DNA of 62,657 nucleotides, counting the filler. It is 12 parts of 12 records of this genome, joined end to end, with 100 filler letters (N's around TTAATTAATTAA, not from the genome) between each part and the next. Parts side by side here need not be neighbours in the genome. Positions count along the whole stretch, not along the records: positions 7,635 to 12,105 come from SRR7504441_16363; 11 more parts are not named here. One strand, given 5' to 3'. Position numbers and translations under genes: made by a program. The notes under the pieces were generated by a model, which was not told where the DNA came from, searched no databases, and saw only the letters and a program-made list of their open reading frames with translations. Positions 7,535-59,759 of this stretch are shown one piece after another (within the stretch, counting starts at the first letter, position 1; every line of letters begins with the position of its first letter).

Positions 7535-7634
7535 NNNNNNNNNNNNNNNNNNNNNNNNNNNNNNNNNNNNNNNNNNNNTTAATTAATTAANNNNNNNNNN
7601 NNNNNNNNNNNNNNNNNNNNNNNNNNNNNNNNNN
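7535..7634. other. Artificial contig linker N44-TTAATTAATTAA-N44
   Basis: Identical 100-nt linker with stops in all six frames. It recurs at 12106-12205, 15336-15435, 23003-23102, 27832-27931, 31225-31324, 41635-41734, 45112-45211, 49006-49105, 55301-55400 and 59504-59603. Confidence 0.98.
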
Positions 7635-7764
7635 TCATGCTAACATCATGCGTGCCATGGAGGCGTCCGCTGGGCGCCACCACGAGAGCACGTGGGTTTG
7701 GGAAAGAACCTTGTTCTCGGACGATGATGTGTGCTTCATCGCGATGAGCGCGTCATACAAATGA
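7635..7764 (+). CDS. 3' end of a truncated unknown gene
   Basis: Open frame HANIMRAMEASAGRHHESTWVWERTLFSDDDVCFIAMSASYK* from the contig edge, followed by AT-rich sequence. Confidence 0.4.
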
Positions 7765-8680: not shown

Positions 8681-10229
8681 ATGTTGCAATGGTTGCAATT
8701 GGTGGTGCTTCTTCTTGCGGGGGGCCCGGTGCTGGCCGGGCCGGCGGTGCGGCTCTACCCGAGCTACAACCAGGCGCTGCACGTCTTGGTGCCGCGGGGC
8801 AACTCCACCGGCGGCACTGTCCGCTGGGCGGGGCCGGCGCCCGACCTCGGGCGCTGCCAAGCCAGCTGCCTGGCCTGGCCCGACCGCTGCTGGTCGTTCG
8901 TCCTGACCGGCGGCCAGTGCTACGTGGTGCTCTCGCCGGGCTTCAACCCTTCGTACGACCCGGCCGCCACCTCCGGGGTGGTGGCGTGGCCCTGTCGCGC
9001 GGACGATGACTGCAGTCTGAACGGGCACTGCCTGGCCGGCCGCTGCCAGTGCCGACCGGCCTGGTCCGGGGAGCGGTGCGAGCGGTTGGCGGTGCTGAGG
9101 CCGGACCGATCGGCTGGGTACCGGGCGGTGGACGGCGGGCGGCACACGAGCAGCTGGGGCGGGGCGGGGCTGCGGGGGGCGGACGGGCGGTTCCACCTGT
9201 GGGCGGCCGAGATGACCGAGCATTGCGGGATCGGGGCCTGGCAGCAGAACAGCCGGGTGATCCACGCCACCAGCCGCACACCGGCCGGGCCGTACACAAG
9301 AGAGGGCGTGGTCTGGCCTGTATTTAGCCATGAGCCTGAGGTCGTGCCCACTGGCTCCGGACAGATCGTCATGTACTTCACAGCCGACCTGCGCTCCCAG
9401 CACGGGCTCTGCAACTGCTGCCGGCCGGGGCACGGCCCGTGCGACGGCTCTACGGGCCCTGGCGACTGCCCTGAGCTCGGGCTTGGCGCTAGCGGCTCGT
9501 TCTTCTCCTGGACAACCGACCCTAACGGCAACTGGTCCGAGCCGGAGAGGCTGTTCGAAGGGTACGTGGGCGGGGACACCAACTTCGCCCCGCTGGTGCT
9601 GGCCAACGGCTCGGTGCTCGCCATGTGGCGGCACTGGGGCGGAGGGAACGGGGGATCAAGGATCTTCCTGGCCACAGCCGCCGACTGGCGGGTGGCGGAC
9701 TCTTACGTGCAGCACCACACCGAGCTGTTCCCGGACCTCGGAGCGGCCGGCACCGAGGACCAATTCCTGTGCCCCGGGGCCTGAATAGCGCTGATGGCAG
9801 GGCAGGTACATGGACGAGCAGGGCAACTACCACGCGGTCTTCCACCACAGTGCGAGCCGGCGGGGGCGGGCTGACCGGCGGGCAGTGTACGGGAGCGGCA
9901 CCCAGACTGAGTGGTGGCTGGACGCGACTGGCGGGCACGCGTTCTCCCGGGATGGTTGGACTTGGACCTACACAGGCGTGGCTTGGGGGAATGCGACCGG
10001 CCGGTACGACACGCCCGCCGGGCAGGGGGCAGAGGTAGAGTTCGCCGACGGGAGCGTCAGCCGGTTCACCCGGCTCGAGCGGCCGCATTTGATATTCGAA
10101 AGCAACGGGCTGCGGGGCGACCCGATCTATCTGATCAACAGCGCGCAGTACGGCAACGGGACCGACCCAGGCAGCGGGGCCAAGAACGACGACGCGTGCT
10201 ACACGCTGATCCGACCGATCAACCGCTGA
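8681..10229 (+). CDS. Secreted protein: signal peptide, Cys-rich PAN-like domain, EGF, GH43/32-clan-like beta-propeller; introns 9769-9805 and 9850-9885
   Basis: Hydrophobic N-terminus, EGF CSLNGHC..CQC..WSGERC, and SSWGG, HEP, EDQFLY, ERPHL propeller motifs. Two GT-AG introns with CTGAT/CTGAC branch sites. Confidence 0.75.
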
Positions 10230-10381
10230 GAGACAAGCAGCCGCATGATGCATGAGATTGCTTAGGATTGATTACGCACTTGAAAGATGTTGTGCTCATG
10301 CATCTTTCAAGTGATTGATTATTACACACTTTTATTATAAAAGGAATCGAGCATCTCGTGCGCAGCATCCCAGCGGGCTCG

Positions 10382-10421
10382 CTCGGCCGGCGCCCTCCTC
10401 AGTTGCAGGCGCCGGCGTCAT
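10382..10421 (-). promoter_or_regulatory. SECIS element of the rhodanese gene
   Basis: Minus strand reads ATGAc-gccggcgcct-gcAA-ct-gagg-ag-ggcgccggc-cGAg: kink-turn core, 9-10 bp helix II, unpaired AA, mini-stem. It starts 20 nt after the stop. Confidence 0.9.
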
Positions 10422-10441
10422 CTCGGGCCGGCCGTTGTTTG

Positions 10442-10801
10442 CTACTTGAGCACGGCCCACTGCTCTTCGGTGGTGGTGCCCCCGCCATTCAGAACAGCCC
10501 CGAACCCTCGCTGCTCCAGGAACGCCCCCGCGGCCACCGCCCGGCCCCCGGACCGTCAGTACAGGATCAGCGGGGTCTGCTTGTCCCCCGGCAGCCGGTC
10601 AGTCGGCATGCTGCTCCCGTCCCACTCCTGCACCACCGCCCCGGCCGCCAGCCCGGTCTGCTCGATCTCCTCGGCCCGGCGCAGGTCGACCACCACCGCT
10701 CCAGCCGCCTTGGCCGCCCGCAGCTCCGCCGCCGAGGCCAGAGCCGAGTACCCAGCCGCCGAGCTCCGCCAGCCCAGCCGAGCAACCCCTCGGGCCAGCA
10801 T
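10442..10801 (-). CDS. Single-domain rhodanese selenoprotein (119 aa; Sec TGA at 10556-10558)
   Basis: VVVDLRRAEE...PLILY*RSGGRA...FLEQRGF.AVLNGGG. The TGA is at the catalytic Cys position, the frame stays open to TAG at 10442-10444, a SECIS follows, and the N-terminus is Arg/Ala/Ser-rich like a transit peptide. Confidence 0.88.
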
Positions 10802-10930
10802 TTGAGCCTTCAAGGACTTGCCGTTAGAGCTCAGCTCATAAAGGTCTAGAACATGACGGGCAGCAGATAGAGCTAGCGTATATGATATACAAAAGGCATG
10901 TCAAACTACCAGTGTTACACGCCCTGTGCA

Positions 10931-12074
10931 CTAGTTAGCACCGGCCCGGCGCTTCTTCTTTTTGGTCCGCCGTTTTTTAACATTGGCCGCATCTCCCGGC
11001 TGCGCTTCCGCCGGCTTCCGCAAGTCCGGCCGGCCGATGAGCGCGCCCCGCCGGTCGAGCGCGGTGTGGTAGCCTGGGTCGCCCCTCCGCTTGAGGAAGC
11101 CATGCGCCAGCCGGACCCGTTCGTGGCTAGTTTGCTCCCAAGCGTCGGCAAGCTGATCGCGGCCGCCCGGGATCCGGAGGAACCAAAACGAGTCCCACGG
11201 GGCGGTCACCCTCTGCACGGTCCCGAGCTCGTCCGGCTGGAGCCTGCCGGTCTTGTAGAAGTACCGCTTGCCCGGGCAGAGGAACAGATGCTCCGAGGCC
11301 ACCGGCTTAAAGTATGGCTTGCAGGCCACCCAGTGCGGCATCAGCAGCAGCGCCGGCTTGCCGTTATCCGCCGCGAACTGCAGCCGGTGAGCCCCCCCTG
11401 GCACGGGGCTGTGCCTGGATCAGGTCTGGTAGGTGCCGGCCCGAGTACGCGGGGTTGGTCTGCCCTCCCCGCTCGCCCGGGCCGGTCAGCCGGCACCAGC
11501 AGCACGTCGTGCTCGGGCACTCGGCCGTCGGCCACCAGCTGCCAGAAGTCGGCCGGCCGGTGAATCACGGCCTCGAACCCAAGCTGTTTCAGCAGCCGCC
11601 CGGCCGCCCCCTCGCACCAGTACGGGTCCCATCTGCCCCCACGGCTGGCCCCAGGCCGCGGCCCGGCCGGCACATCCGCAGGCTGGACCGCTGCTTGCCC
11701 AGCCGCCGGCACAGGAAGTCTAGCACCGGGCAGAGGTCCTGGTAAGCCCGGAGTGGGGTCTCGGCGTGGTCGGACGGATCGGCCTCGAAACACAGCCCAG
11801 ACCGGTCGGACCCGGTGCGCACCTTGCGCCGCTTGGCCGGCCGGGCCGCGGGTGGCTCGCTCGGCAGCCGCGCGCTCTTGCTCCGCTTCGGCTGTTCCGG
11901 CTCGGCGGCCTCGGGGGGCGGCGGCGGCGCCGGCTTCTTGCGCTTCTTCGGCGGCTTGCCCTTGCCCTGTGTCCTGTGCCCAGGACCTCGAGGCGGCGCG
12001 GCAGCCGCTGCCGGCGCGGCTATTTGGCCCGTTGCCCCCCAGCCGGCCGGCAGCGGGATCGCTGACCCCAGCAT
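10931..12074 (-). CDS. Putative amino-methyltransferase-like protein (NPPY-type motif), three introns
   Basis: Spliced product ..LRIWDPYWCEG..LGF..DFW..DVLLTNPAYSG..LIQFAADNGKPALLLMP, with basic low-complexity termini. Confidence 0.6.
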
Positions 12075-12205
12075 TTGCTGCGCTATGTAGCTGCACGAGG
12101 CAGCCNNNNNNNNNNNNNNNNNNNNNNNNNNNNNNNNNNNNNNNNNNNNTTAATTAATTAANNNNNNNNNNNNNNNNNNNNNNNNNNNNNNNNNNNNNNN
12201 NNNNN

Positions 12206-15335: not shown

Positions 15336-15435
15336 NNNNNNNNNNNNNNNNNNNNNNNNNNNNNNNNNNNNNNNNNNNNTTAATTAATTAANNNNNNNNN
15401 NNNNNNNNNNNNNNNNNNNNNNNNNNNNNNNNNNN

Positions 15436-23002: not shown

Positions 23003-23105
23003 NNNNNNNNNNNNNNNNNNNNNNNNNNNNNNNNNNNNNNNNNNNNTTAATTAATTAANNNNNNNNNNNNNNNNNNNNNNNNNNNNNNNNNNNNNNNNNN
23101 NNTCG

Positions 23106-27831: not shown

Positions 27832-28163
27832 NNNNNNNNNNNNNNNNNNNNNNNNNNNNNNNNNNNNNNNNNNNNTTAATTAATTAANNNNNNNNNNNNN
27901 NNNNNNNNNNNNNNNNNNNNNNNNNNNNNNNCCACCACTTGTGGGTGCTTGAGGTACCTCATGGACACTATAGTAGAGTCGCTCACAACCTTGTTGAGGT
28001 TCAGCACCACAATAGTCTAGGATCAAGGTTAGGGTTGGGGTTAGGGTTACCATACTATTATACTACGGTACGTAGTCAGGAACCTCCTGGAACCTCCTCC
28101 TGTAGCATTACCGGTATTGTTGGCGGTGACGCGAGAAAAGGGGAGCGCCCTTCGGGCAGGCCG

Positions 28164-31224: not shown

Positions 31225-31328
31225 NNNNNNNNNNNNNNNNNNNNNNNNNNNNNNNNNNNNNNNNNNNNTTAATTAATTAANNNNNNNNNNNNNNNNNNNN
31301 NNNNNNNNNNNNNNNNNNNNNNNNCTCG

Positions 31329-41634: not shown

Positions 41635-41734
41635 NNNNNNNNNNNNNNNNNNNNNNNNNNNNNNNNNNNNNNNNNNNNTTAATTAATTAANNNNNNNNNN
41701 NNNNNNNNNNNNNNNNNNNNNNNNNNNNNNNNNN

Positions 41735-45111: not shown

Positions 45112-45335
45112 NNNNNNNNNNNNNNNNNNNNNNNNNNNNNNNNNNNNNNNNNNNNTTAATTAATTAANNNNNNNNNNNNNNNNNNNNNNNNNNNNNNNNN
45201 NNNNNNNNNNNCCTACTCAGAGCACTTCGCCGGCCCCTTGTGGCCTGCTCAGAGCACTTCCCGGGGCGATTTGAGCGCCCAACGGCACATCTTCGGTTGT
45301 GCACCGGCATCGGCCAGGCGCTCGCCGGCAAGGGG

Positions 45336-49005: not shown

Positions 49006-49545
49006 NNNNNNNNNNNNNNNNNNNNNNNNNNNNNNNNNNNNNNNNNNNNTTAATTAATTAANNNNNNNNNNNNNNNNNNNNNNNNNNNNNNNNNNNNNNN
49101 NNNNNGCTGATGGGTCGAGTCAAATCTGCCGACGGATGTGATCGAATGCAAACTGTGTACATGCGAATGGTGTAAGCACATGTACCCGGACCGCAAGCAC
49201 GTACAGCGCCCTAGATGCGCGACCGATAGTTAGAACGAAGTGAATAATATATGTGAATACTCTCGACCTCGCTATGTGAACACGCCCTCGAGCTCAATTA
49301 GTACCGTACTCAATTAGTACGATCATTGTCATGTTCACTCCCTTGATATAGCCCAGCGTCTCACCCACTGAACCGTGCACTGCCGGCAGGCGGGCCGCCA
49401 CCGTCATCCGCTCGAGCGCGCCATCCTCGGCCAGGCACTCGGATTGAGTTCACGTACACGAGCTTTGGCGACCTCACCATTGGTCGTCACCTTGGCTGCA
49501 GATGCACACCGGATCCGGGAACTAGACTGCTCGAAGATACCGATG

Positions 49546-55189: not shown

Positions 55190-55518
55190 ATAAACAATGT
55201 ACAAATAATAATGATTGTCACGGTACATGTACCTAGGTACTTGCATACAATCATGTGCGAGTAACTAATTAATCGGATTAACTGAAATTCTTTCTACAGT
55301 NNNNNNNNNNNNNNNNNNNNNNNNNNNNNNNNNNNNNNNNNNNNTTAATTAATTAANNNNNNNNNNNNNNNNNNNNNNNNNNNNNNNNNNNNNNNNNNNN
55401 TGGTGTATCGCCCAATGGCGGTATAAAATATAATTATGACGCCTCGAGTTATGGATAGTTCATTCAATAATCGTGCCGGTTACCCATCTGGGAGCGTCAT
55501 CAGATGGATGGCCCCCAA

Positions 55519-59262: not shown

Positions 59263-59759
59263 GGCTTCGTCTTGACCACCGAAGCCGAGCAAGTCCGTTG
59301 ACGTGGCTGAACGTTGGCGCCGTGAACGTCGACCACAATCATCCAGCGATCCAGGTGCATGCTCGCCCTGCCCGTTTCTCTTGCCCGCCCCTACCCTCCT
59401 GGCTCTTCTTGAACGCTCGACCAGCGGCCCAGTTCTGTTGCCCTATGCTCCGGGCTGCCGCCCAGATTCTCTGATCCCGCCCCCCCCCCCCCCCCCCCCC
59501 CCCNNNNNNNNNNNNNNNNNNNNNNNNNNNNNNNNNNNNNNNNNNNNTTAATTAATTAANNNNNNNNNNNNNNNNNNNNNNNNNNNNNNNNNNNNNNNNN
59601 NNNCCTATGTCATTACTGGTACTAGTGTACAATGAGTGAGCTCGACGAGTAAATAAGGCATACTCGTGAACGTTCAGCTCACAGTCATGATCAAATTTTG
59701 AAAGCCCCCAAGTGCCACAAATATGGGGCACAGATTTGTGTCGACCACGGTTTCCACTT

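Follow-up and report, generated by a model that had tools for sequence, protein, structure and literature searches.

A rhodanese gene from a marine protist with an in-frame TGA at the catalytic position, probably read as selenocysteine

The window, by which we mean the whole stretch of 62,657 nucleotides that was analysed, is composed of 12 contigs of a binned assembly, 3.1–10.3 kb each, joined by 11 identical linkers (7535–7634, 12106–12205, 15336–15435, 23003–23102, 27832–27931, 31225–31324, 41635–41734, 45112–45211, 49006–49105, 55301–55400 and 59504–59603), each of them N44-TTAATTAATTAA-N44 and thus a spacer with stops in all six frames; adjacency across these linkers is artificial. The gene described here sits on the 4.5-kb contig at 7635–12105, and its genomic context can therefore be read from that piece only. 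GC content ranges from 0.49 to 0.72 among 2-kb stretches of the window, so the bin may not be homogeneous. Eukaryotic domains (neurobeachin, WWE, ARID/PHD and ankyrin) are encoded on other pieces, and no tRNA genes were found in the 12 contigs.

On the minus strand of this contig lies an open reading frame interrupted by an in-frame TGA. It starts with the ATG at 10801–10799, the first in its frame: no earlier in-frame ATG occurs between the preceding stop and this position, and the region 5' of it is AT-rich (GC 0.45). An N-terminal extension (residues 1–22; 10736–10801) leads into the first part of a rhodanese domain (residues 23–81; 10559–10735), recognised by Pfam PF00581 and by codon-position GC, and the peptide up to this point starts MLARGVARLGWRSS and ends DKQTPLILY. 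The TGA itself (10558–10556) is codon 82, the proposed selenocysteine (Sec) at the catalytic position of a U-R-S-G-G-R loop, as placed by alignment with the Cys column of the homologues. Past the TGA the frame reads RSGGRAVAAGAFLEQRGFGAVLNGGGTTTEEQWAVLK for 37 codons, which supply the rest of the domain (residues 83–119; 10445–10555) and include the motif NGGG..T.EQW.VL, up to the TAG at 10444–10442; this is the true stop, with homologues terminating 0–3 residues from it, and the product would have 119 residues including Sec. An earlier note on this DNA had described an ORF ending in PLILY* whose frame runs on to this TAG, which is exactly what is found. Downstream, at 10376–10430 on the same strand, folding and a pattern scan mark a candidate type-I eukaryotic SECIS hairpin, and about 45 nt further 3' a pattern search finds an AATAAA hexamer (10331–10336, minus strand), a possible poly(A) signal.

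The convergent neighbour (8681–10229, plus strand) encodes an EGF-domain protein; most of its homologues have about 490–500 residues. It is broken into two frames, 8681–9784 and 9810–10229, pointing to a frameshift or a short intron around 9785–9809; its best homologues are marine sequences of at most 70% identity, and the named ones (Amorphochlora, Triparma and Diplonema) reach at most 56%. Pfam returned nothing for the antisense ORFs at 10358–10849 and 10446–10805 (both plus strand), nor for the neighbouring ORFs at 9810–10229 (plus) and 11341–12096 (minus).

Pfam PF00581 had been proposed as the family against which the catalytic residue should be placed, and the read-through product matches it with an E-value of 4e-7 and 30.9 bits (cut-off 22.2) over residues 23–107. 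An NCBIfam search gave sub-threshold matches only, to the rhodanese domains of MoeB/MoeZ. The AlphaFold2 model, built on 18 sequences, has a mean pLDDT of 89.8 and a pTM of 0.81, with low confidence confined to residues 1–20 (pLDDT 53–58), and shows the arrangement of a strand (78–82) followed by a loop and then a helix (86–97). When compared with the PDB by Foldseek, it retrieves rhodanese domains throughout the listed matches, down to rank 45, including 3foj, 6mxv, GlpE (1gmx), PspE (2jtq), TSTD1 (6bev) and, at 30% identity, the persulfide dioxygenase–rhodanese fusion 5ve3; the TM-scores of 0.5–0.6 are normalised on the query including its disordered N-terminus.

The active-site loop, U82-R-S-G-G-R87, is of the six-residue C-X4-R type with Sec in place of Cys, and in HMMER alignments residue 82 falls on the catalytic Cys of both 2k0z (hCRaGrR) and 6mxv (yCgsGfR). 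These two structures, together with 24 of 26 homologues, bear out the proposal that the TGA stands on the catalytic Cys of a GlpE/PspE-type rhodanese. Judged by its sequence, the read-through product is a single-domain rhodanese resembling GlpE, PspE and TSTD1, for which a sulfurtransferase role is predicted. Its N-terminal 25 residues contain three Arg and no acidic residue; the extension is missing in P0009, P0014 and P0064, which include the shortest homologues; and taken with the low pLDDT over residues 1–20 this fits a mitochondrial presequence. The extension is thus a possible presequence, with targeting as a prediction from these features.

A HMMER search against 1.84 billion representative sequences gave 1125 matches at E ≤ 1e-3, of which the best 150 were listed, and from these 150 we aligned 26 homologues with the query: the closest single-domain ones and four of bacterial appearance. 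C82, G85 and R87 are each at least 90% conserved in the resulting 27-row alignment. The earlier note had raised the question of whether homologues might lack Cys or Sec in the codon-82 column: it is Cys in 24 of the 26, and the remaining two, P0064 and P0097, stop exactly one residue before it. P0064 (62 residues, from a metagenome contig) terminates in ...PVIVY, and P0097 (142 residues, named Prorocentrum cordatum or Polarella glacialis by its sources) in ...PIILH. These two, which are known from protein only, look like further Sec forms that were cut by gene callers.

The named close relatives are dinoflagellates (Biecheleria and Amphidinium) and a diatom (Thalassiosira), the others being marine transcripts and contigs; identity to bacterial rhodaneses is about 36–41%. 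A word-indexed protein search with P0001 as query gave one match, which is bacterial, and the same kind of search with an alignment as query gave 36 matches, with no further truncated form among the seven examined. Searching metagenome contigs with P0001 led to five loci, two of which were examined (L001 and L003); both are ordinary Cys rhodaneses of bacterial appearance, and neither yielded an orthologous SECIS. The top-scoring HMMER matches (P0003, P0005, P0007 and P0031) are multi-rhodanese repeat proteins of 830–865 residues with six tandem rhodanese stretches, and others of this kind have 2–5 stretches.

The hairpin, which the earlier note had placed 20 nt 3' of the stop, was found as quoted. 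Its AUGA lies at 10421–10418, 20 nt past the TAG, and is followed by an uninterrupted helix II of 10 bp (10416–10407 paired with 10395–10386), closed by an apical loop of 11 nt with AA at 10404–10403, while the opposing GA is at 10384–10383; the lower helix is formed by 10425–10424/10381–10380 and 10429–10427/10378–10376. The loop AA is 13 nt from the UGA, a spacing at the long end of the usual SECIS range. By folding energy alone the hairpin stands out only slightly (z = -1.95 and -2.04; in each case 8 of 200 shuffles fold equally well).

The pattern as a whole is rare. We scanned for [A/G]TGA, an uninterrupted helix, a loop AA 9–14 nt from the TGA, and GA; on both strands of the 12 contigs (about 61.5 kb) the combined pattern occurs at one site, and that site is this hairpin. 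A relaxed scan of the window contigs (at least nine pairs, one mismatch, AA or CC) gave no second site, and dinucleotide-preserving shuffles produced the pattern in 3 of 100 (helix of at least 10 bp), 1 of 100 (at least 9 bp) and 15 of 100 (at least 8 bp). For the only site to fall no more than 20 nt from the stop of a rhodanese frame interrupted by TGA, and on the correct strand, exceeds by far what chance would give.

As to the earlier claim that the hairpin is a eukaryotic SECIS, the layout of AUGA, AA and GA within the 3' UTR stands, but the curated models and the core flanks do not follow it. Searches of Rfam release 15 at E ≤ 10 with 10000–11200 (1.2 kb) and with 10360–10445 (86 nt) gave no SECIS match, and returned only chance-level matches to unrelated families. 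The core flanks are AUGAC and CGAG; set against the consensus UGAN / KGAW given in the consulted part of the SECISearch3 paper (PMC3753652), both the C before the GA and the G after it are atypical.

The stretch is present in small shares of marine metagenomes and metatranscriptomes, and contigs from four runs could be aligned to it, with cover missing at 10150–10366 and above 10893. Two of these contigs come from RNA libraries of one study; they are assembled contigs of low depth (2.7–3.6), and contigs of an RNA library are not in themselves proof of transcription. The first, X3 record 4 (oligo-dT library, depth 3.6), is colinear with the window over 10373–10642 without joints, a range that takes in both the TGA and the TAG and the greater part of the hairpin; the second, X6 record 6, covers 10493–10643 with no differences. 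Both keep the TGA, which speaks for a codon that is genuine and unspliced, and as to whether the transcript might end before the hairpin, X3 record 4, an assembled contig, continues into it. X3 record 5 was left out because it has a 33-nt match only. Related contigs from other runs carry 1–2-nt indels just 5' of the ATG, including 2-nt indels at 10806–10808, and X8 record 7, a contig of a poly(A) library, ceases to follow the window sequence above 10850, in the 5' UTR or intergenic region; these upstream indels (10806–10854) and the departure could reflect strain divergence or a 5'-UTR splice.

X3 record 4 is 1.5% diverged from the window, with only four differences in total: one at 10414, by which a C-G pair in helix II becomes U-G, one at 10441 in the UTR base adjoining the stop, and two past the TGA at 10460 and 10478, both synonymous third-position changes (codons 114 and 108). 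These differences bear directly on the possibility that the gene is a nonsense pseudogene or an assembly error, in which a TGC or TGT was mutated or miscalled to TGA and the hairpin is incidental. The TGA is indeed one step from either Cys codon, the sequence comes from a fragmented bin of 12 contigs, and a match to a curated SECIS model is absent. However, the TGA recurs in two contigs that were assembled independently from other runs, one of them the diverged copy, in which the frame and the stem are kept as well, and this is not what a dead gene predicts: past the TGA, neither coding difference alters the protein and GC3 periodicity persists. The 3' UTR is exactly where the SECIS-type pattern, seldom produced by shuffles, is found, and two homologues from other organisms stop at the same column. 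We consider a dead or miscalled gene quite unlikely.

The 37 residues past the TGA are 51–57% identical to the two best full-length homologues (19 of 37 with P0009 and 21 of 37 with P0013), in comparison with 33 of 61 and 33 of 81, respectively, before it, and the family-specific C-terminal motif lies in this part. GC by codon position is 0.77/0.57/0.90 over codons 1–81 and 0.76/0.59/0.86 after the TGA, while it is flat in the 3' UTR (0.65/0.59/0.65 by frame position). The frame past the TGA is thus supported by these sequence comparisons as conserved coding sequence, as conserved as the rest. Gene callers do terminate at the TGA, and TGA is the commonest stop among the long ORFs of the window (14 of 22), as would be expected if it were a genuine stop here as well, ending an 81-residue rhodanese fragment without the catalytic residue and followed by an unrelated 3'-UTR stem. 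Such a product would have neither the active-site loop nor the last helix-strand-helix of the fold, and the 37 in-frame codons past it resemble the homologues and end where these end; termination at codon 82 is very unlikely. A variant nuclear code, in which TGA would stand for Trp or, as in euplotids, for Cys and no selenium would be needed, is extremely unlikely, for although a Cys reading would give the enzyme its usual catalytic residue, 14 of the 22 ATG-initiated ORFs of at least 300 codons in the window terminate in TGA, ORFs of 300–1049 codons are without in-frame TGA, and the SECIS-type hairpin would remain unexplained.

We therefore believe, with a probability of roughly 0.85, that the internal TGA of this marine protist gene is translated as selenocysteine, at the catalytic position of a rhodanese. 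The earlier proposal of a 119-residue Sec-sulfurtransferase gains support from the Cys column, the conservation past the TGA, the SECIS-like hairpin and the retained TGA; actual Sec insertion, selenium–sulfur chemistry, the pathway and the compartment are inferred. In outline, the gene would be nuclear and free of introns, would belong to an uncultured marine protist, and would encode a single-domain rhodanese of 119 residues in which Sec replaces the catalytic Cys. UGA codon 82 would be recoded co-translationally by a kink-turn SECIS in the 3' UTR, about 135 nt past the UGA, which would recruit a SECIS-binding protein and the Sec-specific elongation factor with Sec-tRNA, so that the ribosome reads on for 37 codons to the UAG. 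In the folded enzyme, Sec82, lying within the U-R-S-G-G-R cradle, would take up sulfane sulfur as a selenenyl-persulfide (Se-S), from which a thiophilic acceptor would receive it. The enzyme would probably handle persulfide or thiosulfate in the course of sulfide oxidation, with the mitochondrion as the probable compartment.

The pathway is suggested by the company that the domain keeps in its relatives. We scanned 10 longer homologues with a single rhodanese stretch 41–49% identical to the query for fusions: five carry domains of sulfur metabolism and the other five Rhodanese only. In P0045 and P0069 the rhodanese stretch is accompanied by Sulf_transp, DUF6691 and Lactamase_B (metallo-beta-lactamase), P0094 and P0109 combine Sulf_transp and DUF6691 with Rhodanese, and P0067 has Lactamase_B (metallo-beta-lactamase) and Rhodanese. 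Sulf_transp with DUF6691 corresponds to a YeeE/YedE-type sulfur transporter and the metallo-beta-lactamase is ETHE1-like, a compact sulfur-oxidation module in protists. Bacteria, too, have fusions of rhodanese with persulfide dioxygenase (5ve3). On the basis of these fusions, persulfide/thiosulfate handling is the likely pathway.

Compared with known systems, the predicted protein shares with GlpE (1gmx), PspE (2jtq) and human TSTD1 (6bev) an alpha/beta fold of roughly 100 residues with a C-R-x-G-x-R cradle after the central strand, but these have Cys rather than Sec, are 19–24% identical to it, and are without the NGGG..T.EQW.VL motif of the protist family. The rhodanese domain of Burkholderia phytofirmans PRF (5ve3) is structurally similar at 30% identity, and protist homologues are joined to the same kind of metallo-beta-lactamase domain as in PRF-type fusions; the window protein differs in being stand-alone and in its proposed Sec. 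Bacterial SECIS hairpins lie within the coding region, just after the UGA, whereas the candidate element here is of the eukaryotic kink-turn type in the 3' UTR. The bacterial Sec sulfurtransferases COG0607 and COG2897, as described in the consulted portion of the report on the Global Ocean Sampling selenoproteome (Zhang and Gladyshev 2008; PMC2398784), resemble it in carrying Sec for the catalytic Cys of a rhodanese domain and in coming from marine microbes.

The closest precedent is eukaryotic. The earlier note had held Sec-rhodaneses to be rare in eukaryotes, which overstates the novelty: the 42 algal selenoprotein families catalogued by Jiang et al. (2020; PMC7539508) include a rhodanese family, “Rhod”, and the gene adds to this already catalogued type of selenoprotein and is not a new kind. 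By its published description in the sections consulted, Rhod is likewise a eukaryotic rhodanese-domain protein with a predicted Sec and a 3'-UTR SECIS; its authors call it a likely sulfurtransferase, with cyanide detoxification as a guess at its function, and report a Rhod-MSRA cluster in some Mamiellales (PMC7539508). Two differences stand out. Those sections name Mamiellales only, while the nearest named relatives here are dinoflagellates and a diatom, and there is no MsrA adjoining the gene on this contig, where one flanking ORF is without a Pfam match and the other is the EGF-domain protein. A full-text literature search gave no other paper on a eukaryotic Sec-rhodanese; in PMC11227280 the word “rhodanese” occurs in the reference list only.

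More speculatively, and with the odds against it, the gene together with P0064 and P0097 might form an uncatalogued subfamily of eukaryotic selenoproteins, the stand-alone form of a rhodanese module that is elsewhere fused to YeeE-type transporters and ETHE1-like persulfide dioxygenases. Several lineages would then have switched between Cys and Sec, bringing selenium into the mitochondrial oxidation of sulfide and persulfide, and the GC-rich SECIS variant (AUGAC/CGAG) would be one that Rfam misses.

Knowledge of Sec recoding and of rhodanese chemistry is left unchanged by this gene. Gene callers cut its protein at residue 81, and recognising the Sec codon restores a complete enzyme; the same gene-caller cause most likely explains why P0064 and P0097 end before the same column. 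The hairpin was missed by the Rfam SECIS models and, if functional, would be worth training on where protist genomes are GC-rich. The gene adds one observation on how uncultured marine protists use selenium, and the sulfur transporter and persulfide dioxygenase to which its relatives are fused suggest a pathway that can be tested for a eukaryotic Sec-rhodanese.
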